Below are positions 3,131 through 18,300 of a stretch of DNA of 43,504 nucleotides, piece by piece. The notes under the pieces are model-generated. The model was not told the DNA's origin and did no database searches. It worked only from the letters and a program-made list of their open reading frames with translations. The DNA comes from a virus (taxonomy: Duplodnaviria > Heunggongvirae > Uroviricota > Caudoviricetes). Positions within the stretch are counted from its first letter, which is position 1. Every line of letters begins with the position of its first letter. Where the stretch lies: positions 1 through 43,504 of IMG/VR virus record IMGVR_UViG_646862326_000012. One strand, 5' to 3'. A program made the translations under genes and the position numbers.

Positions 3131-3474
3131 TGTTGACCCTCCTGTGGTTGTGCAGTTGAAAGACTCATGCCCGCGCGTTGTTGCCAGACGACCCAGCCGA
3201 GAGCCATATCCCACGCCATGTACTCGTTATCACCGTTTTTTGCTCTCCGACGATCGACTGTTTTACCGAAACGCTTTTCCATAAATAATTCATAGGCTGC
3301 GCGTTCATCTGGCTCAACTTCCAGAGATGCCAGTGCAATCCGTGCCAGTTCTAAATCATCTTCAAGCTCAGCGCGAATCTCAGCGAATGCACTCTGTGTT
3401 AAGGCGAACTCAATGCTCTGCACTTTATTCCGTGCGCGCTCAAGCAGTGCATGGTAGTTAATTTCGGTTGTCAT
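3127..3474 (-). CDS. Hypothetical early-left protein (115 aa)
   Basis: ORF with AGAGG ribosome-binding site; translationally coupled within the leftward operon. No recognisable motif. Confidence 0.55.
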   Translation of the reverse strand: MTTEINYHALLERARNKVQSIEFALTQSAFAEIRAELEDDLELARIALASLEVEPDERAAYELFMEKRFGKTVDRRRAKNGDNEYMAWDMALGWVVWQQRAGMSLSTAQPQEGQQ

Positions 3475-4349: not shown

Positions 4350-4876
4350 TTGCGTAACTCCGATAACTCGTTAAAACGTTCCATAAACATCCCGTAGGCA
4401 TGTCCTGGTGCCAGTGGAATCACTTTGAACATCTCTGTTGCCGGGATACCTTCCAGTACAGGCCAGAAAGAGCCATCATCAAGCCCGAGATCGCGGCGTT
4501 CGGTTGCCAGCATAATGAGATCGGCATATTTCACTGGCGTGCTCATAACAGGAGGTAACCCGTATTTCTCACGGATTACGGCGTCTATTTTTTCTTCCAT
4601 CTGTTTATAGTCAGGAAGAAGGCGTTTCAGTGGCGCGGGGATGTCCTGACAATACGCTTCTGTTGCATCATGCATTAACGCTTCAAAAGCAAACTCCTCC
4701 GGAACCAGTTTGCTGCAAAGCACCGCATGTTGGGCGACGCTGTAGAAGTGTGAAAGATGACCGGCAAAGCGACAGATATTTGAAAGGGAAACTGCGATAT
4801 CGTTAATCGCGATGTCGTCTTTATTTATCCTGTCATAATAAAAATGCTTCCCGGAAAAAGTTTTAATAAATGACAT
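4340..4876 (-). CDS. yfdR: HD-domain phosphohydrolase (5'-deoxynucleotidase YfdR-like)
   Basis: 178 aa from the internal Met MSFIKTF (GGAGAA ribosome-binding site). H..HD motif (LMHDATEAY). Length and architecture match the CPS-53 prophage YfdR as remembered; the symbol is tentative. Confidence 0.7.
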   Translation of the reverse strand: MSFIKTFSGKHFYYDRINKDDIAINDIAVSLSNICRFAGHLSHFYSVAQHAVLCSKLVPEEFAFEALMHDATEAYCQDIPAPLKRLLPDYKQMEEKIDAVIREKYGLPPVMSTPVKYADLIMLATERRDLGLDDGSFWPVLEGIPATEMFKVIPLAPGHAYGMFMERFNELSELRKCA

Positions 4877-6257: not shown

Positions 6258-6924
6258 TTTGCTGCTCCTCATCATATCGACCCTGCAAGGTCGGTTGGTT
6301 TCTCCACAAAACAGAGAAGAACACCTGCGGTGGCAGCCGCCCGGATGGATTGGGTTATGAGCCCGTCGTCCGGTGATGCCCTTCTCTGTTTTGTAAAAAG
6401 AGCGGTACCAGCCGGAAGCAAGTGTACAAACTGGTACCGCCAAAGCAGTGGCTGTTGTGGTGACCGGTGCTGATCTCCGGCTTGCGGTTATTTCAGACTC
6501 TCACGGGCGTTTAATTGCCCCGCCGAACAGCTCTTTTCCGCAATAGCTGCATGTCTTTCGCGCATCAGCCTGCGCATTCACCACAACGCTGAGAGCATTG
6601 CCGGTGTCCGAATCGAACGGACCTTTTCCCTGCCCAACCCTCCCATCTGAATGGGACTGTCTGGAATTGAACCAGCACTTATGCCTTGCTCGTCAATGCT
6701 CTCATCGTTGCGTCCTGGTCTCTTCCCAGGCGTCAAACCGGATCGCCACGCTGGTTAGGCGTCTTATCAGCATCCTCATTGACTTGCACATTCCGGCTAC
6801 CTGGTTTGTTTGCCCGAGCAAGGAGTGGATTATCCCCTTTAACGTCCCCAGACCGCTAACGACGCATGTGCCATACGCCGTGTTACAACCAAATTTTGTT
6901 TGAATCTTGCCTGTCTCATGTTTC

Positions 6925-6962
6925 TTTTGGATACATTATGTATCTCATAGGTACATTGTCAA
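6925..6962. promoter_or_regulatory. Candidate left operator / pL region
   Basis: Perfect 15-bp palindrome GATACATTATGTATC (6930-6944) plus an adjacent GGTACATTGT half-site. Lies just beyond the cI terminator, the expected OL/pL position. Confidence 0.4.
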
Positions 6963-6965
6963 GTA

Positions 6966-6990
6966 TAAAAAAACCTGCCGAAGCAGGTTC
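6966..6990 (-). terminator. Rho-independent terminator after cI
   Basis: Hairpin cctgc-cgaag-caggt followed by a T-run on the minus strand, immediately downstream of the cI stop. Confidence 0.55.
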
Positions 6991-7001
6991 ATAAATATTG
7001 A

Positions 7002-7676
7002 TTAGGCCTTTATTGTGTATCTTCTTGGTTTTCCCGAGAAAATCACTGTACCAATTATAGAGCAATTACCGTTAATCTTAATGTAAGGCTCAGGCCAGTT
7101 TGGGTTTAATGCTTTGAGATAACGCTGTGTTCCATCTTCTATCAACCGCTTGAAGGTGGTTTCGCCTGAATCGTGCATCAATGCAATAACGTCGTCACCG
7201 TGGCAGGCAGGGACTTCAGGATCAACAAAAATCATGTCTCCCGGGCGGTACTCATCAATCATTGAATCACCAATCACCCGCAAGATATAAGTCATTTCGC
7301 CACAGGGTACAGGGCAGGGATAAGTTTCTGCTGTGCTCAAATCAACCTCAGAATAGCCAACTTCTTTCCATGCTCCGGCCTGTACCCATGATATGACAGG
7401 GACTAACGTTATTTGTTTGTTAGTGATTGAAACATCAGGTTTTTTTGTGATGTTCGTGGTCTGGTGTTCTTGATCAAGCCATCCGACAGGCAGGTCGAAA
7501 CATTTTTCGATGTGCCTTGCCATGCTGTCACCGATATTTTTAGTAGCACCATCTCCCATAAACCTGCTGGTCTGGGTTGGCTCGCGATCAATCATGGTGG
7601 CAAAGGAAGAATTCCCGCCAACACCATCTCTCAGTTTTCTGGCGTTAGACCGCCGGATGTCATGGACTGTTTTCAT
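7002..7676 (-). CDS. cI: CI-type prophage repressor (HTH + S24 LexA-like peptidase domain)
   Basis: 224 aa. C-terminal RVIGDSM motif (S24 serine nucleophile context) and an Ala-Gly (QAGAW) candidate autocleavage site. Divergent from the cro-like gene. Confidence 0.9.
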   Translation of the reverse strand: MKTVHDIRRSNARKLRDGVGGNSSFATMIDREPTQTSRFMGDGATKNIGDSMARHIEKCFDLPVGWLDQEHQTTNITKKPDVSITNKQITLVPVISWVQAGAWKEVGYSEVDLSTAETYPCPVPCGEMTYILRVIGDSMIDEYRPGDMIFVDPEVPACHGDDVIALMHDSGETTFKRLIEDGTQRYLKALNPNWPEPYIKINGNCSIIGTVIFSGKPRRYTIKA

Positions 7677-7766
7677 AAAGAAATTAAAACCTTTGTACCG
7701 ATAAGGTACAAGTATCTTGAGGGTTCATCTCAATCATGTAATATGTATATCGGAGGTACATATTGT
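7677..7766. promoter_or_regulatory. OR / pRM-pR region between cI and cro
   Basis: 19-bp palindrome TTGTACCGATAAGGTACAA (7693-7711) and a second dyad ATGTA...TACAT (7743-7761) in the divergent intergenic region. Confidence 0.6.
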
Positions 7767-7967
7767 ATGAAAGCGTATTGGGACTCTTTAACCAAAGAAC
7801 AGCAGGGCGAGTTGGCCGGAAAAGTTGGCTCAACACCAGGCTACTTACGGCTGGTTTTCAATGGTTATAAAAAAGCCAGTTTTGTGCTGGCTAAAAAACT
7901 TGAGCAATGCACGTCAGGTGCAATTACGAAATCTGACTTAAGACCGGATATCTATCCGAAAGATTAA
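7767..7967 (+). CDS. cro: Cro-like HTH regulator
   Basis: 66 aa from MKAYWDSLTKEQQ, with GGAGG 10 nt upstream. Small helix-turn-helix protein divergent from cI. The 167-aa ORF in the track is an antisense over-extension into cI. Confidence 0.75.
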   Translation: MKAYWDSLTKEQQGELAGKVGSTPGYLRLVFNGYKKASFVLAKKLEQCTSGAITKSDLRPDIYPKD

Positions 7968-7998
7968 CAGAACACCTTCAATTTTTAACCACAGAACG

Positions 7999-8562
7999 AT
8001 GAGGCTAACCGTGGGTAAGCATCACTGGAAAGTAGAAAAACAGCCTGAGTGGTACGTGAAAGCTGTCAGAAAAACTATCGCGGCGTTGCCGGGAGGTTAC
8101 GCTGAAGCTGCTGAGTGGCTGGATGTAACAGAGAACGCTTTATTCAACCGCCTTCGTGCAGATGGCGATCAGATTTTCCCGCTGGGATGGGCAATGATTT
8201 TACAGCGCGCGGCTGGCACTCACTACATTGCGGATGCTGTCGCACAGTCTGCTGGTGGGGTGTTTGTATCGCTTCCTGAACTTGAGGAAGTAGAGAACGC
8301 CGATATAAACCAGCGCCTGCTGGAAGTCATCGAACAGATCGGGAGTTACTCAAAGCAGATTCGTTCGGCAATCGAAGATGGGGTAGTGGAGCCACACGAG
8401 CAGACAGCAATTAATGATGAGTTGTATCTGTCAATTTCGAAGCTCCAGGAGCATGCAGCACTGGTCTACAAAATCTTTTGCGCTCCAGAAAAGAGTGACG
8501 CCCGCGAGTGTGCAGCTCCGGGCGTCGTGGCGTTTTGTGTCTGTGGAGAAACTAACGCATGA
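7999..8562 (+). CDS. CII-like regulatory protein (tentative)
   Basis: 187-aa ORF directly after cro; N-terminal HTH-like stretch. ATGA overlap with the next gene. Confidence 0.45.
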   Translation: MRLTVGKHHWKVEKQPEWYVKAVRKTIAALPGGYAEAAEWLDVTENALFNRLRADGDQIFPLGWAMILQRAAGTHYIADAVAQSAGGVFVSLPELEEVENADINQRLLEVIEQIGSYSKQIRSAIEDGVVEPHEQTAINDELYLSISKLQEHAALVYKIFCAPEKSDARECAAPGVVAFCVCGETNA

Positions 8563-9395
8563 ACAGTTTAACGGCAAATAACCGTTTGTCGCAACAGCTG
8601 GTGGTCAGCGTCGCTGAACACCTGTTGTTACGGCATGAATGCAGATTACCAAATCACATGGCTGTAAGTAACCACAGAGAACTTTACCTGACTGTGGGGG
8701 GCGAGTTGTGCAGGAACTTAACCGCTGGTTTCGTGACGGAAGAGGGCTTTATGTCCATGTTATTCGTTGGGAGCCAGAAACACAGCGCGTTATCTATCTT
8801 CGCAAAGACTACCCGCATGAGTGCTTTAGTCCTTTGTGGAAATTCAGGCGTGATTTTGTTGAGTGTGAAGGACCACCAGCACATTGATTCTGCCATTCCG
8901 GGACGTTACACTGTTCAGGCACCTTATAAAGCGGGTGTCGGGATTGGCGTCCTGGAATTGCATACGGCGACAATTGGCGCGTTAGCGTCTTTTTTGTTGC
9001 TACAACTCAGCTATACCCAAATTATGGTGGGCTGGGTGGGGGCACCGAAAGGTGCGCCGGTTTCCGTATGCGCCGGTTACGCCAACCCTGCTCAGTTCAC
9101 CACCAGCGAAATTGGCGTTTCCGGTGGTGGAAGTTATCCATTGCATACGGAGGCTGCCATCATGGCTACTGTCCCAGCCCTCTCTCGTCTGAATGATGAA
9201 GACTTACATAAACTCAGTTATGTAACAACTGCACTACATGCTCTGCGCAAGGTAACTCTTTCGGATCCGCAGGCGCATCAGGTTTTGGTAGAAACCCTTC
9301 TTAACTTGCAGGCTGAACGTATTCGTCTGGCGGATAAGGCTAATTTTCATATTCACCGTCTCCTGAATATCAGCGGAGGGCATCGTCATGCTTAA
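8559..9395 (+). CDS. Hypothetical protein (278 aa)
   Basis: ORF translationally coupled to both neighbours (ATGA overlap upstream; the next gene's ribosome-binding site lies in its 3' end). No motif recognised; composition is unusual. Confidence 0.4.
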   Translation: MNSLTANNRLSQQLVVSVAEHLLLRHECRLPNHMAVSNHRELYLTVGGELCRNLTAGFVTEEGFMSMLFVGSQKHSALSIFAKTTRMSALVLCGNSGVILLSVKDHQHIDSAIPGRYTVQAPYKAGVGIGVLELHTATIGALASFLLLQLSYTQIMVGWVGAPKGAPVSVCAGYANPAQFTTSEIGVSGGGSYPLHTEAAIMATVPALSRLNDEDLHKLSYVTTALHALRKVTLSDPQAHQVLVETLLNLQAERIRLADKANFHIHRLLNISGGHRHA

Positions 9396-9624
9396 TCCGT
9401 TGATCCTCAATATTTGCCGTTTGCTTCAGCGTAAAAAAACATCAATTCCTACAGTTGGGCAGTGGTACACCACGCCTGCAGGGCATGTTCTACGTGTTAG
9501 CCTGGTTGACCGTGAATGCCAGAAGGTGATTTGTGAACCGCTGGGCCGTAATTACCGCGTCAGTATGCCGCTTATAGCCTTTCGCTCCGGAAAAAACATG
9601 AAGCATCTCGGAGGTGCAGCATGA
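9388..9624 (+). CDS. Hypothetical small protein (78 aa)
   Basis: GGAGGG ribosome-binding site 8 nt upstream; ATGA overlap with the downstream replication gene. Confidence 0.45.
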   Translation: MLNPLILNICRLLQRKKTSIPTVGQWYTTPAGHVLRVSLVDRECQKVICEPLGRNYRVSMPLIAFRSGKNMKHLGGAA

Positions 9625-10439
9625 GTATGGAGCTGATGGTTAAAGCGATGAAAATTCGAGTGGGTAATCCATTGCGAAAACTGGTTCTGATCAAGCTGGC
9701 TGATAATGCCAGCGATCAGGGTGAGTGCTGGCCCAGCTACCAGCATATTGCTGACCAGTGCGAGATTAGCAAACGTTCTGTGATGAATCATATTGCGGCC
9801 CTTTGTGAGTCCGGGCTGGTAAAAAAAGTCACCCGGAAAGGTGAAAAAGGTAACTCAAGTAATATCTATCTCCTTCATCTGGATGGTGCAGGAGATTCAC
9901 TAGGGGGTAGTGCAAATAATTCACTATCTGGTGCAGCAAATTCACTAGGTAGTGCAGGAGTTGCACCAGGGGGTAGTGCAGGAGATTCACCCAGAACCAG
10001 TCACTCTTTTGAACCAGTCAAAGAACCAGTCAATGAACCAATAGCTGTTGGTGCATCAGTTGATGAGCCCGTGCGAGTTCGTTCAAACCGACCGGAATAC
10101 TCTCCGGAGTTTGAGCAGGCATGGCTGGCATATCCCAAACGTGCTGGTGGCAATTCAAAATCTGCAGCCTTCAAAGCCTGGAAAGCCCGTTTGAATGAGG
10201 GAGTAAACCCCGAAACCATGCTGGAAGGTGTGAAACGCTACGCGGGCTGGGTATCTGCGATGGGTAACAGCGGCACACAATTTGTGAAACAGGCTGTCAC
10301 GTTCTTTGGTCCGGATCGTCATTTCGAAGAATTCTGGGAAGTTCCTGCGGTATCTGCAGCCAGACGCGAGGACCCGTACTTCAAAGCCAGTTACGACAAC
10401 GTGGACTACAGCCAGATCCCGGCAGGATTCAGGGGGTGA
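9621..10439 (+). CDS. Replication initiation protein (O-like, N-terminal HTH)
   Basis: 272 aa. N-terminal winged-helix/HTH region (LVLIKLADNASDQGECWPSYQHIADQ...) typical of phage replication-initiator N-domains. Central low-complexity linker encoded by iteron-like DNA repeats. Confidence 0.6.
   Translation: MSMELMVKAMKIRVGNPLRKLVLIKLADNASDQGECWPSYQHIADQCEISKRSVMNHIAALCESGLVKKVTRKGEKGNSSNIYLLHLDGAGDSLGGSANNSLSGAANSLGSAGVAPGGSAGDSPRTSHSFEPVKEPVNEPIAVGASVDEPVRVRSNRPEYSPEFEQAWLAYPKRAGGNSKSAAFKAWKARLNEGVNPETMLEGVKRYAGWVSAMGNSGTQFVKQAVTFFGPDRHFEEFWEVPAVSAARREDPYFKASYDNVDYSQIPAGFRG
9885..10045. repeat. Iteron-like direct repeats inside the O-like gene (candidate ori)
   Basis: About 4 copies of a ~24-bp unit (ATTCACTAGGGGGTAGTGCA-like), followed by 3-4 copies of GAACCAGTCA. 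Arrangement is analogous to lambda ori iterons embedded in gene O. Confidence 0.5.
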
Positions 10440-10441
10440 TC

Positions 10442-10930
10442 ATGAGTCTTTTGAATGAAGTTCAGAAATTCATTGAAGCCCATCCGGGGTGTACTTCCGG
10501 AGACATTGCGGATGCTTTTGCAGGTTACTCACGGCAGCGCGTTCTGCAGTCAGCAAGCAAGTTACGTCAGAGTGGGCGTGTGGCTCACCGTTGTGAAGGA
10601 GATACACGCAGACATTTCCCACGCCTGACTGAGAGAGCGCAGGAGCCGGAACCACAACCAGTTCGTGAAACCAGACCTGTGCGCAATTTCTATGTCGGCA
10701 CTAACGATCCCCGGGTGATTTTGTGCCTGACCCGCCAGGCGGAAGAACTGGAGTCCAGGGGCTTATACCGTCGTGCTGCAACGGTGTGGATGGCGGCATT
10801 CCGTGAAAGCCACTCCCAGCCAGAACGAAACAATTTTCTGGCGCGTCGTGAGCAGTGTTTACGGAAAAGCAGCAAGCGCGCTGTATCGGGTGATGAGTGG
10901 TATCTGTCAGGGAATTACGTGGGGGCTTAA
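10442..10930 (+). CDS. Hypothetical regulator, possibly PerC-family-like C-terminus
   Basis: Start at ATG 10442 with AGGGGG ribosome-binding site. N-terminal winged-helix-like segment; C-terminal LESRGLYRRAATVWMAAF resembles the PerC/Pch family motif as remembered. Weak. Confidence 0.4.
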   Translation: MSLLNEVQKFIEAHPGCTSGDIADAFAGYSRQRVLQSASKLRQSGRVAHRCEGDTRRHFPRLTERAQEPEPQPVRETRPVRNFYVGTNDPRVILCLTRQAEELESRGLYRRAATVWMAAFRESHSQPERNNFLARREQCLRKSSKRAVSGDEWYLSGNYVGA

Positions 10931-11583
10931 TGAGTAATAAATATTGCCAGGAGCTGGTGGAACTGCGGAACAAACCAGCCCATGAACTGAAGGAAGTGGG
11001 TGATCAGTGGCGCACGCCGGACAACATTTTCTGGGGAATTAACACCTTGTTTGGCCCGTTTGTTCGGGATCTGTTTACTGACGGTGATAACGCCAAATGT
11101 GCTGCGTATTACACGGCGGAAGACAACGCGCTGGCGCATGACTGGTCAGAACGTCTTGCGGAGCTTAAAGGTGCTGCCTTTGGTAATCCCCCATACAGCC
11201 GCGCCAGTCAGCATGAGGGGCAATACATCACCGGCATGCGTTACATCATGAAACATGCCAGTGCCATGCGTGATAAAGGTGGGCGCTATGTTTTCCTGAT
11301 CAAAGCTGCCACCAGCGAAGTTTGGTGGCCGGAAGATGCAGACCATATTGCTTTTATTCGCGGGCGTATTGGTTTTGAACTGCCAGCCTGGTTTATCCCG
11401 AAGGACGAGAAGCAGGTGCCGACAGGCGCTTTCTTCGCTGGTGCTATTGCTGTTTTCGACAAGACCTGGAAGGGACCGGCAATCAGCTACATCGGGCGCG
11501 ATGAACTTGAGGCATGTGGTGAGGCCTTTCTGGCGCAGGTTCGCCAGCAGGCGGAAAAACTGGTCAGGGAGATGGCGGCATGA
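10930..11583 (+). CDS. Phage N6-adenine DNA methyltransferase (Dam-like)
   Basis: 217 aa; NPPY catalytic motif (FGNPPYS) diagnostic of N6-adenine/N4-cytosine methyltransferases. TAATG overlap with the upstream gene. Confidence 0.85.
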   Translation: MSNKYCQELVELRNKPAHELKEVGDQWRTPDNIFWGINTLFGPFVRDLFTDGDNAKCAAYYTAEDNALAHDWSERLAELKGAAFGNPPYSRASQHEGQYITGMRYIMKHASAMRDKGGRYVFLIKAATSEVWWPEDADHIAFIRGRIGFELPAWFIPKDEKQVPTGAFFAGAIAVFDKTWKGPAISYIGRDELEACGEAFLAQVRQQAEKLVREMAA

Positions 11584-11906
11584 CGACATTAACTCAATGC
11601 CAGCAGCAGGTGCTGGATATGCTGATTTCTTACCAGAAAGAACGTGGCTTCCCGCCAACCAATCAGGAGGTGGCAACCATGCTGGGATACCGTTCAGTGA
11701 ATGCAGCGGTGGAGCATCTTCGCGCACTGGAGAAAAAAGGCGTCATCACGATAAAGCGTGGCGTGGCCCGGGGGATAACGCTTCATACCGCGGTGAAGGA
11801 CGACGACAGCGAGGCGGTCGGGATTATCCGCTCACTGCTTGCCGGTGAGGAAAACGCAAGGCTGCGTGCAACCCACTGGTTACATGAGAGGGGCCTGAAA
11901 GCATGA
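11580..11906 (+). CDS. LexA N-terminal DNA-binding-domain protein (no peptidase domain)
   Basis: 108 aa. Alignable by eye to the LexA winged-HTH domain (QQQVLDML...GFPPTNQEVATMLGYRSVNAAVEHLRALEKKGVI); ends before any S24 domain. Confidence 0.75.
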   Translation: MTTLTQCQQQVLDMLISYQKERGFPPTNQEVATMLGYRSVNAAVEHLRALEKKGVITIKRGVARGITLHTAVKDDDSEAVGIIRSLLAGEENARLRATHWLHERGLKA

Positions 11907-12292
11907 AGCTGATCCTGCCTTTTCCGCCCAGCGTGAACACGTACTGGCGACACCCCAACAAAGGGGCGTTTGCAGGTAAGAGCCTGATAAGCGCGGCGGG
12001 GCGCAAATTCCAGAGCGCGGCGTGTGCAGCAATAGTTGAGCAGTTACGTCGTCTGCCAAAACCAACGTCGGCACCTGCTTCAGTGGAGATCGTGTTGTTT
12101 CCTCCGGATAACCGGATCCGCGATCTGGACAACTATAACAAGGCGCTGTTTGACGCCCTGACCCACGCGGGTGTGTGGGAAGACGACAGTCAGGTGAAAA
12201 GAATGCTGGTGGAGTGGGGACCGGTTATCCCGGAAGGGAAGGTCGAGATCACTATCAGTAAGTACGAGAAAACGGCGGGTGCAGCCGCCTGA
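11903..12292 (+). CDS. rusA: RusA Holliday-junction resolvase
   Basis: 129 aa; MKLILPFPPSVNTYWR start and DLDNYNKALFDAL catalytic region typical of RusA. Confidence 0.9.
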   Translation: MKLILPFPPSVNTYWRHPNKGAFAGKSLISAAGRKFQSAACAAIVEQLRRLPKPTSAPASVEIVLFPPDNRIRDLDNYNKALFDALTHAGVWEDDSQVKRMLVEWGPVIPEGKVEITISKYEKTAGAAA

Positions 12293-12311
12293 TTAAGAGG
12301 AGAAACGAAGT

Positions 12312-13154
12312 ATGAATAATCTGATGGTCATTGATGGTATTGAAGTTCGTCGTGATGCTTATGGACGTTACAGCCTGAACGATCTGCATCGCGCAGCAGT
12401 AGCATCTGGTGCAAATGCCAGAACCAAGGAGCCGGGAAAGTTTCTTTCCAGCCAACAGATTACTGAGCTGGTTCAGGAATTGATCGATACCCAAAATCTG
12501 GGTGTCGGTTCATTCAATGAAACTACCCAAAATTTGGGTAGTAAACCTGTCAGTAAAATAGAAGGGCGGAATGGCGGAACATATGTCTGTAAGGAACTGG
12601 TGTATGCCTATGCAATGTGGATCAGCCCGTCATTCCATCTGAAGGTGATCCGCACTTTCGACATGGTAACCAGCGCACCGGAAAAATTATCCGGGCAGGC
12701 TGCTGACAAGATGCAGGCTGGCGTGATTCTGCTGGACTTTATGCGCCGGGAGTTAAATCTGTCTAACTCATCAGTGCTTGGTGCCTGTCAGAAACTTCAG
12801 GAGGCTGTTGGCTTACCGAATCTGGCACCGCGCTATGCCATTGATGCTCCTGCTGATGCACACGATGGCTCAAGTCGCCCGACACTGTCACTGAGTGCAC
12901 TGCTGAAACAGTATGGTATACGCCTGACGGCTAATCAGGCATATCACCAGATGGCGAAGCTGGGGATCGTTGAACAACGTGAACGATACAGCCGCACTGC
13001 GATTAACAACATCAAAAAATTCTGGTCGCTGACGGCGAAAGGCTGCATGTTCGGCAAAAACATCACCAGTCCCGCAAATCCGCGCGAGACGCAGCCGCAT
13101 TTCTTCGAATCCCGATTCCCTGAGCTGTTAAAGCTGCTCGATACCGTTCATTGA
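12312..13154 (+). CDS. KilA-N domain protein (antirepressor-like)
   Basis: 280 aa; N-terminal VIDGIEVRRDAYGRYSLNDLHRA matches the KilA-N domain signature. Confidence 0.75.
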   Translation: MNNLMVIDGIEVRRDAYGRYSLNDLHRAAVASGANARTKEPGKFLSSQQITELVQELIDTQNLGVGSFNETTQNLGSKPVSKIEGRNGGTYVCKELVYAYAMWISPSFHLKVIRTFDMVTSAPEKLSGQAADKMQAGVILLDFMRRELNLSNSSVLGACQKLQEAVGLPNLAPRYAIDAPADAHDGSSRPTLSLSALLKQYGIRLTANQAYHQMAKLGIVEQRERYSRTAINNIKKFWSLTAKGCMFGKNITSPANPRETQPHFFESRFPELLKLLDTVH

Positions 13155-13155
13155 G

Positions 13156-14151
13156 GTGACCGTGAGAGCACTACTGACCCCTGAAATTGCCCCGCGTATG
13201 GGGATCGTATTGTTCAGGCCCGGTTCAGAGCTGATGCCCCTGTTTATGCAGGGGCGTGTCCTGCTGGAGCCTGAGCCGGAACGTTATTCATCTTTCGCCA
13301 GTGGTGCCGTTCCGGCGGCATCACAACCGCTGGCGGATGATCCTGCCGTTCGGGCCGTGTTCCGCAATGAGGCAGTGATCCGTCGTGCTGGTGGCGTGGA
13401 ATGTCTTGAAAGCTGGTTACTTCGTGAAAAAGGCTGCCAGTGGCCTCATTCCGACTGGCACAGCGAGAACATGACAACAATGCGACACGCTCCGGGCGCA
13501 ATCCGTCTGTGCTGGCACTGCGATAACCAGCTGCGCGATCAGTTCACGGAACGGCTGGAATCAATGGCAACGGATAACTGTACCCGCTGGGTGTTGTCTG
13601 TTGTGCGTCGGGATCTCGGTTTTGATGACAGTCACGTTGTGACAATGCCGGAACTGTGCTGGTGGCTGATTCGTAATGACCTGGCGGATGCCTTACCGGA
13701 AAGTGCAGCCCGTAAGGCACTGAGATTACCGAAGCCTGTTGTGCCGTCTGTCACCCGGGAAAGTGACCTTGTGCCTTCGGTTCCCGCCACCAGCATCATC
13801 CAGAATAAAGCGAAAAAGGTGCTGGCGCTGAAAGTGGATCCGGAGTCGCCGGAGTCTTTTATGTTACGCCCAAAACGTCGCCGCTGGGTTAATGAAAAGT
13901 ACACGCGCTGGGTTAAGACACAGCCGTGTGCATGTTGTGGAAAGCCTGCTGATGATCCCCACCACCTGACAGGTCACGGTCAGGGTGGAATGGGAACAAA
14001 AGCGCATGACCTCTTTGTGTTGCCTTTGTGCAGAAAGCATCACGACGAGCTGCATGCGGATACCGTGGCATTTGAAGAGAAGTATGGCTCCCAGCTGGAG
14101 CTGATATTTCGTTTTATCGATCGTGCGCTGGCAATAGGCGTACTGGCGTAA
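13156..14151 (+). CDS. DUF968 family protein (Zn-binding/HNH-like C-terminus)
   Basis: 331 aa; apparent GTG start; C-terminal CxxC...HH cluster (QPCACCGKP...HHLTGHG...CRKHHDELH). Typical position between rusA and Q in lambdoid prophages. Confidence 0.65.
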   Translation: MTVRALLTPEIAPRMGIVLFRPGSELMPLFMQGRVLLEPEPERYSSFASGAVPAASQPLADDPAVRAVFRNEAVIRRAGGVECLESWLLREKGCQWPHSDWHSENMTTMRHAPGAIRLCWHCDNQLRDQFTERLESMATDNCTRWVLSVVRRDLGFDDSHVVTMPELCWWLIRNDLADALPESAARKALRLPKPVVPSVTRESDLVPSVPATSIIQNKAKKVLALKVDPESPESFMLRPKRRRWVNEKYTRWVKTQPCACCGKPADDPHHLTGHGQGGMGTKAHDLFVLPLCRKHHDELHADTVAFEEKYGSQLELIFRFIDRALAIGVLA

Positions 14152-14164
14152 GTGGAGAACGAGC

Positions 14165-14917
14165 ATGAACCTTGAATCCTTACCGAAATATTACTCCCCA
14201 AAATCTCCAAAATTGAGCGATGACGCACTGGCGACAGGCTCGGGTGGTTTAACAATTACGGATGTGATGGCTGCGCAGGGGATGGTGCAGTCGAAAGCAC
14301 CGCTTGGTTTTGCCTTATTCCTGGCAAAAGTTGGTGTTCAGGACCCTCAGTTTGCGATTGAAGGTCTGCTCAATTACGCGATGGCACTGGATAACCCGAC
14401 ATTGAACAAATTGAGTGAAGAAAACCGGTTACAGATCATCCCTTACCTTGTGAATTTTGCCTTTGCTGATTATTCCAGGTCTGCGGCAAGTAAGGCTCGC
14501 TGTGAGCATTGTGCAGGTACGGGATTTCATAATGTATTGCGCGAAGTGGTGAAACACTCCAGAAGCGGGGAGTCTGTTGTCAAGGAAGAGTGGGTGAAGG
14601 AACTATGTCAGCATTGTCATGGTAAGGGAGAAGTCAGCACAGCGTGCAGAGGGTGTAAGGGTAAAGGTATTGTACTGGATGAGAAAAGAACCCGGCTTCA
14701 TGGTGCGCCTGTTTATAAGATTTGTGGGCGTTGCAATGGAAACCGGTTTAGCCGTTTACCAACCACACTGGCGCGGCTTCATGTCCAGAAGCTGGTACCA
14801 GACCTGACGGATTATCAGTGGTACAAAGGATATGCAGATGTCATTGATAAACTGGTTACAAAGTGCTGGCAGGAAGAAGCATATGCAGAGATACAATTGA
14901 GAAAGGTGACAAGATAA
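14165..14917 (+). CDS. Late-gene antiterminator Q (Zn-finger type)
   Basis: 250 aa with repeated CxxCxGxG zinc-finger-like motifs. Located immediately upstream of a strong terminator and the lysis cassette. Confidence 0.75.
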   Translation: MNLESLPKYYSPKSPKLSDDALATGSGGLTITDVMAAQGMVQSKAPLGFALFLAKVGVQDPQFAIEGLLNYAMALDNPTLNKLSEENRLQIIPYLVNFAFADYSRSAASKARCEHCAGTGFHNVLREVVKHSRSGESVVKEEWVKELCQHCHGKGEVSTACRGCKGKGIVLDEKRTRLHGAPVYKICGRCNGNRFSRLPTTLARLHVQKLVPDLTDYQWYKGYADVIDKLVTKCWQEEAYAEIQLRKVTR

Positions 14918-15022
14918 ATGGTTTTCGCCGAAGATAACGACATGATGCTTGCATTTTTCAAAAAATATGGATAAGATTTTCCCAACGATGGGCTTTGTAT
15001 GTCTACCGTTGATAAGATTTAA

Positions 15023-15050
15023 GAACCCGCCGCTGAGCGGGTTTTTTTGT
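15023..15050 (+). terminator. Rho-independent terminator (tR'-like) downstream of Q
   Basis: ACCCGCCGCTGAGCGGGT hairpin followed by TTTTTTT. Confidence 0.65.
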
Positions 15051-15197
15051 GCCTGATGTCTCATGAAACTATGAAATGGATTGGTGCGTTAAACATTTTT
15101 TCTTATTATCTTTTAGATTTTGGAGAGATGGGTAACGTCTGTATTCCAGAAACTCGATGAATATTTAATAAATTAGTTTCAATGATGCTTCTAGGTT

Positions 15198-15623
15198 ATG
15201 AGTGTAATGAAAAAGGTATTAATAGCAGCGATAGGTTTTTGTTTAGTTGGTTGTGCAGGTATGAAATTACCTGAGTATTCGCAAGTTAAAGCAAGTCCGT
15301 ATTATACAGATTGCCGTGCGTTTGCCATGGATGTTTATAAAAATGATGGATACAGCAAAATTGCGAAAACCACTATCCTTAGCATGGATGATGTGAAGGC
15401 TAGATATATTGTGACAGGGTGTGTAGTTGCTATGGGGAAAAACACTGTAGAGGAAATTAAAGCTGATCTCTCTGCTAAAGGGAGTTCTTTTGGGCTTATC
15501 AGTGGTGCTTGTTCTAGTGCTGCATGTCGGGTTGATGTAGAGCAGCAAATGAACGCTTATATACTTGGTAGTTATTATGCTGCAAATAAAAAATTCCCGG
15601 ATAAAATGAAAGCAGAGTTTTAA
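15198..15623 (+). CDS. Lipoprotein moron (141 aa)
   Basis: Signal peptide with lipobox LVGC (Cys19). AT-rich. Flanked by two near-identical intrinsic terminators between Q and the tRNA cluster. Confidence 0.7.
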   Translation: MSVMKKVLIAAIGFCLVGCAGMKLPEYSQVKASPYYTDCRAFAMDVYKNDGYSKIAKTTILSMDDVKARYIVTGCVVAMGKNTVEEIKADLSAKGSSFGLISGACSSAACRVDVEQQMNAYILGSYYAANKKFPDKMKAEF

Positions 15624-15701
15624 GCAAACCTTGTTTTCGATTATATGCCGAAGATAAATGTTAGTAACGGCATAATAAGTAAATATATAGCTGTGATAGC
15701 A

Positions 15702-15726
15702 ACCCGCCACTGAGCGGGTTTTTTGT
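15702..15726 (+). terminator. Rho-independent terminator after the lipoprotein gene
   Basis: ACCCGCCACTGAGCGGGT hairpin plus T-run; near-duplicate of the terminator at 15023-15050. Confidence 0.65.
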
Positions 15727-15843
15727 ACCTGTAAACTTGGTGCAGTACAGTAAACACGCTGGTGGACAAGTGAAAAACAGCATTTAATCAGGCCTTCTGA
15801 AGATATTGCAGTATTAATTCCGTAACGTTATTATTCTGCGCGC

Positions 15844-15919
15844 GGCCCTTTAGCTCAGTGGTGAGAGCGAGCGACTCATAATCGCCAGGTCGCTGGTTCA
15901 AATCCAGCAAGGGCCACCA
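15844..15919 (+). tRNA. tRNA with CAU anticodon (Ile2/lysidine-type, ileX/ileZ-like; could be scored as Met)
   Basis: 76-nt cloverleaf folded by eye: acceptor GGCCCTT/AAGGGCC, anticodon loop CTCATAA, T-loop TTCAAAT, 3' CCA. Close to E. coli ileX as remembered. Confidence 0.8.
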
Positions 15920-15920
15920 A

Positions 15921-15990
15921 CTGCCACTAGCTCATCAGGAAGGAGCTTCAACCCTTTAAGTGCGAGGTTCGAGTCCCCGGTGGCGGTCCA
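15921..15990 (+). pseudogene. Degenerate tRNA-like element (possible tRNA-Arg remnant)
   Basis: Acceptor stem, D-arm, T-arm (GGTTCGAGTCC) and CCA are present, but the anticodon arm is too short to fold canonically. ACCCTTTAAGT resembles the argU anticodon region with deletions. Confidence 0.35.
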
Positions 15991-15992
15991 GT

Positions 15993-16068
<76 letters not shown>

Positions 16069-16071
16069 TAT

Positions 16072-16146
<75 letters not shown>

Positions 16147-16152
16147 GTTAGA

Positions 16153-16276
16153 GTCTTTCAGTCTGCGATGATGGGAAATCCCGGAGTGACTGAAAGACGT
16201 TTAAGTTATGAATGATCGCTTTTTTTGCAAAATTGCTGTGCAGAAATACTAACCTTCGGGCAGGCGATCATTCATA
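16153..16276 (+). other. Structured non-coding region with two long inverted repeats
   Basis: Inverted repeat 1: GTCTTTCAGTC (16153-16163) / GACTGAAAGAC (16188-16198). Inverted repeat 2: TATGAATGATCGC (16207-16219) / GCGATCATTCATA (16264-16276), with an internal T7 run. No ORF. Confidence 0.4.
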
Positions 16277-16437
16277 AGCACTCTGCTTTTATTCCGATTA
16301 ACTGTGGGTGGTTTGTTGGATAGAGTGCTTCCCTTACTGTATATATTGTTTCGCCCGTTTTTGCGGGTTTTTCTTTTCAAATCCCTTTCATTTCTCAGTG
16401 TAAAACTACGCCATCCGTTATTTGCGGAGGTGAGGCT

Positions 16438-16653
16438 ATGAAATCCATGGACAAAATTTCAACGGGCATTGCCTACGGCACCTCCGCAGGTAGTGCCGGG
16501 TACTGGTTTTTACAGTTGCTCGATAAAGTCACGCCCTCACAGTGGGCGGCAATAGGTGTGCTGGGTAGTCTGGTATTTGGCTTGCTGACGTATCTGACAA
16601 ACCTTTATTTCAAGATTAAAGAAGATAAGCGTAAGGCTGCGAGAGGTGAATAA
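16438..16653 (+). CDS. Class II holin (phage 21 S21-type)
   Basis: 71 aa; near-identical in pattern to S21 ([24 protein letters not shown]...), two TM segments, charged C-terminus. GGAGGTGAGG ribosome-binding site. Confidence 0.9.
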
Positions 16654-17150
16654 TGTCACCATCATTACGCAAGGCTGTTGCTGCTGCTATTGGTGGTGGG
16701 GCTGTTGCTATAGCGTCTGTGCTCATCACTGGTCCAAGTGGTGACGATGGTCTGGAAGGTGTCAGCTACATACCATACAAAGATATCGTTGGTGTATGGA
16801 CTGTATGTCACGGACACACCGGAAAAGATATCATTCCCGGTAAAACGTATACCGAAGCAGAATGCAAAGCCCTCCTGAATAAAGACCTTGCTACGGTCGC
16901 CAGACAAATTAACCCGTACATCAAAGCTGATATACCAGAAACAACACGCGGCGCTCTTTACTCGTTCGTTTACAACGTGGGCGCTGGCAATTTCAGAACA
17001 TCGACGCTTCTTCGCAAAATCAACCAGGGCGATATCAAAGGTGCATGTGATCAACTACGTCGCTGGACATATGCTGGCGGTAAGCAATGGAAAGGGCTGA
17101 TGACTCGCCGTGAGATTGAGCGTGAAGTCTGTTTGTGGGGGCAGCAATGA
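16653..17150 (+). CDS. SAR endolysin (R21-type lysozyme)
   Basis: 165 aa; N-terminal Gly/Ala-rich signal-anchor-release segment followed by a lysozyme-like domain. Overlaps the holin stop. Confidence 0.9.
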
Positions 17151-17584
17151 GCAGAGTAACCGCGATTATTTACGCTCTGGTTATCTGCATCATCGTCTGC
17201 CTGTCATGGGCTGTTAATCATTACCGTGATAACGCAATCGCCTACAAAGAGCAGCGCGATAAAGCCACATCCATCATCGCTGACATGCAGAAGCGTCAAC
17301 GTGATGTAGCAGAACTCGATGCCAGATATACAAAGGAGCTTGCTGATGCTAATGCGACTATCGAAAGTCTCCGTGCTGATGTTTCTGCTGGTCGTAAGCG
17401 CCTGCAAGTCTCCGCCACCTGTGCAAAGTCAACGACCGGAGCCAGCAGCATGGGCGATGGAGAAAGCCCAAGACTTACAGCAGATGCTGAACTCAATTAT
17501 TACCGTCTCCGAAGTGGAATAGACAGGATAACCGCGCAGGTTAACTACCTGCAGGAATACATCAGGACGCAATGCCTTCGATGA
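17147..17584 (+). CDS. Rz i-spanin
   Basis: ATGA overlap with the endolysin stop; N-terminal TM segment then coiled-coil-rich periplasmic domain. Confidence 0.8.
17319..17522 (+). CDS. Rz1 o-spanin (embedded in Rz, +1 frame)
   Basis: Lipobox VVSAC followed by a Pro-rich segment ([13 protein letters not shown]), fully inside Rz. True start is probably an internal Met (17346 or 17352). Confidence 0.65.
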
Positions 17585-17854
17585 TAGCGATAGTTTTACT
17601 CATCATCCTTCACATCTGGCTCTGTAGACAGGGTGGTGCTCACTTCTGGAGTGAATCCAGATTAAACATCTCATTGCTGATGCTTGATATTGAGCATCTG
17701 GCGCGCGGTAAGGGGCAGCGTTGAGATAAGAGTCAGTTCATTACAAAGCCTATCTACGGATGGGCTTGATAATGGTTTGTTAACCTCGCTTAGCACGAAC
17801 GGCATTACCGCAGGCATTCACTGAGTGCCTGCGATAATACTTTTGATAGTCAGA

Positions 17855-18046
17855 TTACAGGATAAAAATTAGATCGAAGTAATAACCTCCTTCCATTGTG
17901 ATTTTTCCTTCACGGTATAACTCGCAAAGAGAATCGAAAGTTTCTTCATGATTATCGTTCTCAGGGAACCATGCTGGCTGGAAAGCAACTTTTCCTTTTT
18001 CATTCATTACTTTTAACATATAAGGGATAATATATTGTTTCTTCAT
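17855..18046 (-). CDS. Hypothetical small protein (63 aa), AT-rich moron
   Basis: ORF on the opposite strand between Rz and cos. AAGAGG ribosome-binding site 7 nt upstream of the ATG. Local AT-rich composition. Confidence 0.5.
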   Translation of the reverse strand: MKKQYIIPYMLKVMNEKGKVAFQPAWFPENDNHEETFDSLCELYREGKITMEGGYYFDLIFIL

Positions 18047-18214
18047 AAAAAAACCTCTTATTGTGATTGAAAAGTTTTACGTGCCATTTAGAGTACTTGA
18101 AGTCACTTCTCATCTTTAACGACCTCCGCAAATACATCGAAAATAATATTCACTTTGTGATTTGTAGTTACCTTGGAAAGGTACATGACTAACGAGAATT
18201 ACTTCATCATTGAC

Positions 18215-18300
18215 GGGTCCTCCCGGTGGGGTGGCCTGCCACGGGGCGGGAGCGTCGCGGAAAAAGGCTAGTTTTTGAAATTTCATTCGTCATCACCACT
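18215..18300. other. cos site (cosN/cosB-like) upstream of the small terminase gene
   Basis: ACGGGGCGGGAGCGTCGCGG resembles the lambda cosN region (ACGGGGCGGCGACCTCGCGGG) as remembered; downstream TTCGTCAT element as in lambda cosB. Confidence 0.5.

Follow-up and report, generated by a model that had tools for sequence, protein, structure and literature searches.

A stand-alone LexA-type domain in the nin region

The DNA analysed here (the window) is the whole of the 43,504-nucleotide IMG/VR record IMGVR_UViG_646862326_000012, from a virus of the class Caudoviricetes. The gene in question, at 11580..11906 on the plus strand, encodes a stand-alone LexA-type DNA-binding protein of 108 amino acids (ATG start; stop codon included in the coordinates), for which the label LexD is used in the present analysis. 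The Pfam family PF01726 (LexA_DNA_bind) covers residues 1–65 of LexD at all 65 model positions (E=2.9e-19; 69 bits against a cutoff of 23.7), and a phmmer search of Protein Data Bank (PDB) sequences matched residues 2–69 to 1lea, the DNA-binding domain of E. coli LexA (E=6.9e-16). In an AlphaFold2 model of LexD (mean predicted local distance difference test score (pLDDT) of 82), 68 residues superpose on the LexA–DNA complex 3jso with a root-mean-square deviation of 1.0 Å and 50% identity. The winged helix-turn-helix (wHTH), assigned to residues 1–68 (11580..11783, plus strand) from PF01726, the modelled secondary structure and the Foldseek alignment to 3jso, is built of helices 6–22, 28–35 and 40–52 and of wing strands 56–58 and 66–68. 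No Peptidase_S24 match was found in LexD in the Pfam search; the protein stops at residue 108, and the open reading frame (ORF) that follows encodes RusA in a different frame. LexD thus carries the N-terminal domain of a bona fide LexA (PF01726 plus PF00717) but not its S24 domain, and the first-pass annotation, which had described a lone LexA N-terminal domain ending before any autoprotease domain, was borne out on both counts.

The remainder of the protein consists of a low-confidence linker (residues 69–74; 11784..11801, plus strand; pLDDT <50 at residues 71–74) and a C-terminal helical hairpin (residues 75–108; 11802..11903, plus strand; helices 75–88 and 93–103), which is proposed to be a dimerisation element and was delimited from conservation, the AlphaFold2 model and the ratio of non-synonymous to synonymous substitution rates (dN/dS). 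Members of the family keep to a length of ~106–112 amino acids; homologues down to 38% identity are all of ~105–135 amino acids and have in common the flexible linker and the hairpin, the consensus of the latter being EAVxxIRALLAGEENARxRAxxWLxxRG. Pairwise dN/dS between relatives ranges from 0.10 to 0.44, for the domain and for the tail. Because length and tail are conserved and dN/dS is in this range, the gene is maintained under purifying selection and is not a decayed remnant of lexA. A Foldseek comparison of the model with the PDB found no structural match for the hairpin. Within it, the ‘LLAGEE' of LexD from the E. coli lineage aligns with ‘VAAGEP' of the LexA cleavage region, which suggests that LexD descends from a truncated LexA; no catalytic domain is present in cis. 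The ‘AGE' at residues 88–90 (11841..11849, plus strand), aligned to the Ala84-Gly85-Glu86 cleavage site of LexA, is probably a vestige; in the alignment of homologues the LLAGEE/AGE motif is not kept in distant members.

The gene lies in the rightward delayed-early (nin) region of a lambdoid early-right operon. Starting from the minus-strand CI-like gene, the order is CI-like S24 repressor, CII-like, replication, PerC, Dam, LexD, RusA, KilA-N, DUF968 and Q. LexD is preceded by a Dam-type N6-adenine methyltransferase (10930..11583, plus strand; PF05869, E=2.5e-44) and followed by the Holliday-junction resolvase RusA (11903..12292, plus strand; PF05866, E=6e-15), and is joined to each by an ATGA overlap of stop and start codons, at 11580..11583 and 11903..11906 on the plus strand, respectively (GCATGA in both cases). 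The placement in the early-right operon and the translational coupling to both neighbours, as suggested at first pass, therefore held. The chain of overlapping stops and starts spans 10436–12292: the PerC–Dam junction is TAATG, and at 10437–10439 the TGA of the replication gene runs into the GTG listed as the start codon of PerC (10436). The start of Dam is probably the ATG at 10930, as in RefSeq, rather than the GTG at 10897 of the longest ORF. Downstream of rusA are an antirepressor-like KilA-N domain protein (12312–13154), a DUF968/HNH-like protein (13156–14151) and a Q-like antiterminator that closes the nin region (14165..14917, plus strand). As the phage encodes its own CI-like repressor with an S24 domain (7002..7676, minus strand), it has no need of LexA for its own switch.

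LexD is widespread and already annotated. It is 100% identical to WP_000210169.1 and is matched end to end by the PHROG profile phrog_362 (residues 1–107 on profile positions 1–105 of 106; E=1.5e-59). Phage mEp460 and several Stx2a and Stx2c phages are 98–99% identical to the LexD region, and other matching phage records, among them SfV, SfII, SfIV and cdtI, are 95–99% identical (50 records in all). The 327-bp gene was present in 2232 of 5426 complete E. coli genomes (~41%), Stx2 phages included, with up to 4 copies per genome; database copies with a frameshift or a truncation are common. Its labels are ‘LexA family transcriptional regulator' in PGAP, ‘transcriptional repressor' in PHROG 362, orf42 in SfV and, in other phage records, ‘LexA DNA binding domain protein', ‘repressor, lexA family', ‘LexA-like protein' and, wrongly, ‘SOS-response repressor and protease LexA'. 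Full-text literature searches found no functional study of the family, and the ‘LexA-like' of the mEp phage paper was set aside as a mention of LexD, since it refers to the S24 domain of CI. Existence of the gene is therefore known by annotation, and GIL01 gp6 is an earlier, characterised case of a truncated LexA encoded by a phage. We believe that the following features, described below, are unreported in the literature searched: a LexA-competent helix that LexD has in common with full-length LexAs, a tail that is conserved, operons with an SOS box at their head, and linkage and fusion to RusA.

The recognition helix and SOS-box operons of relatives

The recognition helix of LexD, SVNAAVEHLRALEK (residues 39–52; 11694..11735, plus strand), was compared with that of E. 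coli LexA, in which Ser39, Asn41, Ala42, Glu44 and Glu45 contact bases (PMC3091678). Four of these five residues (Ser39, Asn41, Ala42 and Glu45) are identical in LexD, while position 44 is Val (LexD helix RSVNAAVEHLRAL, RSVNAAVEHL, against RSPNAAEEHLKAL in E. coli LexA); the wing residues Arg64-Gly65-Ile66 are invariant. One genome per bacterial species was then scanned with a degenerate DNA pattern from which Glu44 had been excluded, yielding 56 loci. The non-enterobacterial ones are full-length LexAs of ~200–330 amino acids with the S24 GxSM motif present. Some 20 of these carry the helix RSVNAAVDHLKAL (RSVNAAVDHL) and so share both Val40 and Val44 with LexD; they come mostly from Chromatiales, Acidiferrobacterales and Betaproteobacteria. 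A CTGT-N8-ACAG or CTG-N10-CAG box is located within ~110 bp upstream of 30 of the 33 full-length lexA genes from the scan, against a chance expectation of ~0.004 per 260 bp, and most of the boxes are 20–60 bp from the estimated start, as fits autoregulated lexA.

Val44 is thus compatible with reading of the canonical SOS box, because the same helix is found in full-length LexAs with SOS boxes upstream, and for the same reason the change from Glu44 to Val was dropped as a sign of altered specificity. By these sequence comparisons the recognition helix of LexD is predicted to be SOS-box competent. Loss of the recognition-helix residues was what the first-pass annotation had named as speaking against its proposal; what the alignment to LexA revealed is identity at four contacts and, at the fifth, a residue found in LexAs that are associated with SOS boxes. 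Across the short LexA-domain family Glu44 is never retained: position 44 and other helix positions vary among V, A, F, T, L, Y, G and R, and the protein cluster P0242 has NTVFIH.

A search of the phage for SOS-box-like sites, also proposed at first pass, turned up no credible site. The exact CTGT-N8-ACAG pattern has a single match in the window, inside an ORF, where 0.54 are expected. The best site in a position weight matrix scan of the window (with a matrix derived from E. coli boxes) scored 13.6 bits, compared with a mean maximum of 11.6 and a largest value of 18.1 in shuffled sequence. As no SOS box above chance is present in the window, any SOS target must be in trans, in the host or in other prophages. 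An inverted-repeat scan of 6400–18300 found only ordinary short palindromes, with no LexA-type dyad near a promoter and no candidate operator near Q or PR'.

Operons of certain relatives are organized differently at their head. In one distant lineage, whose members are of 118–165 amino acids and mostly have an N-terminal extension, the operon starts with a canonical SOS box. The order in this lineage is SOS box, then dinI, a RecA_C fragment or nothing, then phrog_1813, the LexD relative, phrog_1212, RusA in some members, DUF968 and, in loci that extend far enough, Q. The boxes are at 4561–4580 of locus L009 (TACTGTTTATATATACAGTG) and at 4560–4579 of L008, where the box abuts a promoter-like site (TTGCAA-17-AATAAT), the first operon gene encoding a small phrog_1813 protein in both; at 3242–3261 of L154, where a gene for a 95-residue RecA_C-domain fragment follows; and at 513–532 of L157, where dinI follows. 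Klebsiella phage ST846-OXA48phi9.1 (L150) has the same dinI-led order, its upstream region being beyond the start of the record, so that a LexD relative was found together with dinI twice (L157 and L150). An independent case is Edwardsiella phage EPP-1 (L151), in which an SOS box at 1231–1250 is followed by a Rha/Ant antirepressor as the first operon gene, a 71-residue LexA-domain protein and DUF968. A putative LexA-controlled promoter beside dinI would be expected of a feedback regulator of the SOS circuit, without proving such a role. Q is located downstream in L008, L009 and L157, where late-gene activation may be under direct LexA control.

Linkage to rusA and alternative architectures

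The gene downstream of LexD is the more constant of its two neighbours. All 80 close IMG/VR loci have a rusA that begins at the LexD stop codon, while the Dam gene is absent in ~18 of the 80 and in several distant loci; Dam is thus optional and was rejected as a functional partner of LexD. Adjacency to rusA, either direct or with one small ORF between, extends to the distant lineages L002–L009, mEp390, L154, L158 and L159 (most distant lineages at 38–51% identity), and was found for every Enterobacteriaceae match of the genome scan with downstream DNA present. Exceptions were found on both sides: RusA proteins of the same lineage (60–80% identical) are without LexD in ST64B, Klebsiella phage ST101-KPC2phi6.3 and YeP2, and LexD relatives are without an adjacent rusA in ST846-OXA48phi9.1, L157 and EPP-1. 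Nearly all relatives with enough downstream DNA, the rusA-less ones included, have DUF968 further along from the LexA-domain gene, the exception being a Proteus phage. In that phage (vB_BPM-V3; L153 1878–2357), a LexA-type domain (37% identity over 65 residues) is part of a 159-residue protein whose gene lies immediately upstream of ninG (rap) and overlaps it. There NinG, the other nuclease of lambdoid phages that acts on branched DNA, takes the place that rusA holds in the window.

Based on what follows the wHTH, three architectures were distinguished: (i) the wHTH plus hairpin of LexD in the window; (ii) the wHTH plus a different C-terminal domain of ~80 residues (Enterobacter pulveris and Citrobacter), encoded directly upstream of rusA, for example at L099 5173–5661 (minus strand), L118 4174–4626 (minus strand) and L132 4766–5239 (plus strand); (iii) in-frame wHTH–linker–RusA fusions of 202–212 amino acids without the hairpin tail (Kluyvera and Klebsiella), in which both Pfam domains are present. 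The C-terminal domain of the second form (…DSDGxxxMxLWxVMxxFG…FEL…LE) matches phrog_29443 and has no Pfam match. The fusions comprise at least 24 protein clusters (P0253–P0276) that are 73–97% identical and annotated only as ‘RusA family' or ‘hypothetical'; examples are L125 1307–1945 (plus strand) of Kluyvera sp. STS39-E and L145 5826–6452 (minus strand) of K. cryocrescens NBRC 102467. In an AlphaFold2 model of such a fusion the domains are joined by a disordered linker and have no confident packing (predicted template modelling score (pTM) of 0.49). An apparent E. coli fusion, P0331, was discounted as a single-member deletion product that lacks ~37 N-terminal residues of RusA.

Two further observations concern the make-up of these families. 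The PHROG RusA profile, phrog_34, has 259 positions, and RusA aligns to positions 75–201 only, suggesting that N-terminally extended, possibly fused, members went into the family. In addition, P0131, P0132, P0149, P0152, P0153, P0156 and P0159 each contain two tandem LexA_DNA_bind stretches and look like covalent winged-HTH pseudo-dimers.

Candidate functions of LexD

The reading that we favour, tentatively and at somewhat short of an even chance, is that LexD is a RecA-insensitive mimic of LexA, that is, an SOS-box binder acting in trans. The suggestion made at first pass, that an uncleavable domain might occupy SOS boxes, is consistent with the recognition helix and with the SOS-box operons of relatives. 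The LexA-type wHTH would keep the CTGT-reading helix, and the short hairpin would stand in for the S24 dimerisation and autocleavage domain. Judging from the position of its gene, production of LexD would follow induction or infection, with the delayed-early (PR, nin) transcript as its source; the protein would dimerise via the hairpin and as a dimer would bind CTGT-N8-ACAG SOS operators in trans. Putative targets are the host SOS regulon and the SOS-box promoters of co-resident prophages (for example, those of antirepressors and dinI) and, in relatives, also the promoter of the own operon; such promoters would be kept repressed, or re-repressed, while RecA* destroys host LexA. That the outcome would be repression, as opposed to activation or competition, and that the phage would benefit are both presumed here.

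The three architectures could have one reading in common, namely that a LexA-type domain plus a dimerising module (the hairpin, the alternative domain or homodimeric RusA) makes an uncleavable binder of SOS operators. Replacement of the tail by another domain, or by homodimeric RusA in the natural fusions, is what would be expected if the C-terminal part only needs to dimerise. The half-site spacing in the LexA–DNA complex, as Zhang et al. 2010 are said to have found, is set by wing–wing contacts between the DNA-binding domains and not by the C-terminal domain. In the two-hybrid work of Dmitrova 1998, as summarized in PMC7595419, sulA is not repressed by the LexA DNA-binding domain on its own, but it is once that domain is fused to a dimerising partner. 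It is on account of these two points that a shared, dimeric mode of SOS-operator binding is proposed for the three forms. The favoured reading would account for the recognition helix, the tail, the SOS-box operons, the nearness of dinI and even the fusions, but not for the choice of rusA as the neighbour; one possibility there is that repression of the LexA-controlled host ruvAB would act in favour of RusA.

Four known systems bear on this proposal. With E. coli LexA (1lea/3jso), LexD shares the fold, ~50% identity over residues 1–68, Ser39/Asn41/Ala42/Glu45 and Arg64-Gly65-Ile66, but it is without S24 (no Ser119/Lys156), hence without autocleavage or a LexA-type dimer interface, and it differs in Val at 44, a hairpin tail of its own, a phage nin location and the lack of nearby autoregulatory SOS boxes in the window. 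The truncated LexA homologue gp6 of the Bacillus thuringiensis tectivirus GIL01, compared here by its description, binds a non-LexA site, GaCACAnnTGTGaC, and activates the late promoter P3 (PMC6182141). Like LexD it is a phage-encoded LexA wHTH without the protease, expressed early in a phage tied to the SOS response; unlike LexD it is a bare domain that reads GaCACAnnTGTGaC through Lys38 as an activator, whereas LexD has the LexA-like helix SVNAAVEH and, beyond the domain, a conserved tail, and the lambdoid phage that encodes it has a CI of its own. As a tblastn search of 50,697 phage records (E<=1e-5) found no Bacillus or tectivirus match, LexD is not detectably a relative of gp6. The hairpin, alternative-domain and RusA-fused forms have the layout of the engineered LexA(1–87)–dimerisation hybrids (Dmitrova et al. 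1998, as described in PMC7595419), in which the LexA domain and an unrelated dimeriser make a non-cleavable repressor of, for example, sulA; these are laboratory constructs on the E. coli LexA domain itself, whereas dimerisation and operator binding by LexD are predicted. In LexA(Ind-) mutants and with DinI-like dampers and GIL01 gp7 the expected outcome is the same, an SOS regulon repressed despite RecA activation, but LexA(Ind-) is full length, and DinI and gp7 act on the RecA or LexA protein, whereas LexD would act on DNA.

An alternative, which we consider unlikely, is that LexD is primarily not a transcription factor but a DNA-binding accessory subunit of RusA that tethers or targets the resolvase or modulates its cutting, via the tail or, in the fusions, covalently. 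The placement of rusA at the LexD stop codon in all 80 close loci with Dam dispensable, the adjacency in most of the distant lineages and in every Enterobacteriaceae match with downstream DNA, the 24 or more clusters of in-frame fusions and the Proteus phage protein directly upstream of the analogous nuclease NinG all argue for it. Yet the association is broken in both directions in the phages and loci named above, conserved base-specific LexA contacts would be unexpected of a cofactor for a structure-specific junction enzyme, and the modelled fusion has no confident domain packing; the adjacency, moreover, may merely mirror the conserved backbone order of such nin regions. Similarly improbable, in our estimate, is a phage-specific regulator with an own, non-SOS operator that activates or represses a phage promoter, for example a late or nin-region one. 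This is the behaviour of gp6 on GaCACAnnTGTGaC at P3 (PMC6182141) and would fit the PHROG 362 label, the absence of Glu44 throughout the short family and a helix that differs between lineages. It is at odds with the inverted-repeat scan, which gave no LexA-type dyad near a promoter, with the burial of the gene in a translationally coupled operon that has no adjacent intergenic region, with a helix that is the same as in full-length LexAs using canonical boxes, and with the absence of a Bacillus phage match.

Far less probable still is that LexD takes no part in DNA regulation and is a passive decoy or a vestige that travels with a mosaic nin region. On its own, the LexA N-terminal domain is a poor operator binder and gave no sulA repression in the two-hybrid assay (PMC7595419), and broken database copies are common. 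Against this, selection acts on domain and tail alike, homologues as distant as 38% identity keep both the length and the tail, and 41% of complete E. coli genomes, as well as active phages, carry the gene. Several points also weigh against LexD as a trans-acting SOS-box binder. No credible SOS box is present anywhere in the window, and there is thus no target in cis. In gp6, the one phage LexA-domain protein to have been characterised, the site bound is not that of LexA and the effect is activation. The variation of the helix means that specificity is not uniform, and some members of the short family may not read CTGT. Dimerisation by the hairpin is a proposal, for which the structure comes from a monomer model. 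Finally, the near-invariant adjacency and the fusion to RusA are unexplained by a role in the SOS response.

A more elaborate version of the SOS-repressor reading, which we hold to be rather unlikely, would link the two. A common prophage gene would then be a natural RecA-proof SOS repressor that, after induction, re-silences the LexA regulon (ruvAB, recA, sulA and the antirepressors of rivals) and leaves the junctions to the co-translated, sometimes fused, RusA, an off-switch thereby being coupled to a resolvase.

Should LexD bind SOS operators, close to half of the E. coli strains with a sequence would carry a damage-insensitive SOS repressor that is on during prophage induction. The duration or strength of the SOS response after antibiotics could then be affected, and with it mutagenesis, filamentation, colicin production and Stx output; LexD could also influence which co-resident prophage wins after induction, as well as phage recombination by RusA versus host RuvABC. 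It would be a natural counterpart of the engineered two-hybrid LexA fusions and, beside GIL01 gp6, a second and mechanistically different case of phage reuse of the LexA domain. If instead the link to RusA is the real function, LexD would be the first protein to be described as a DNA-binding accessory of a RusA resolvase. What LexD does is thus relevant to Stx phages and to the SOS responses that antibiotics induce.

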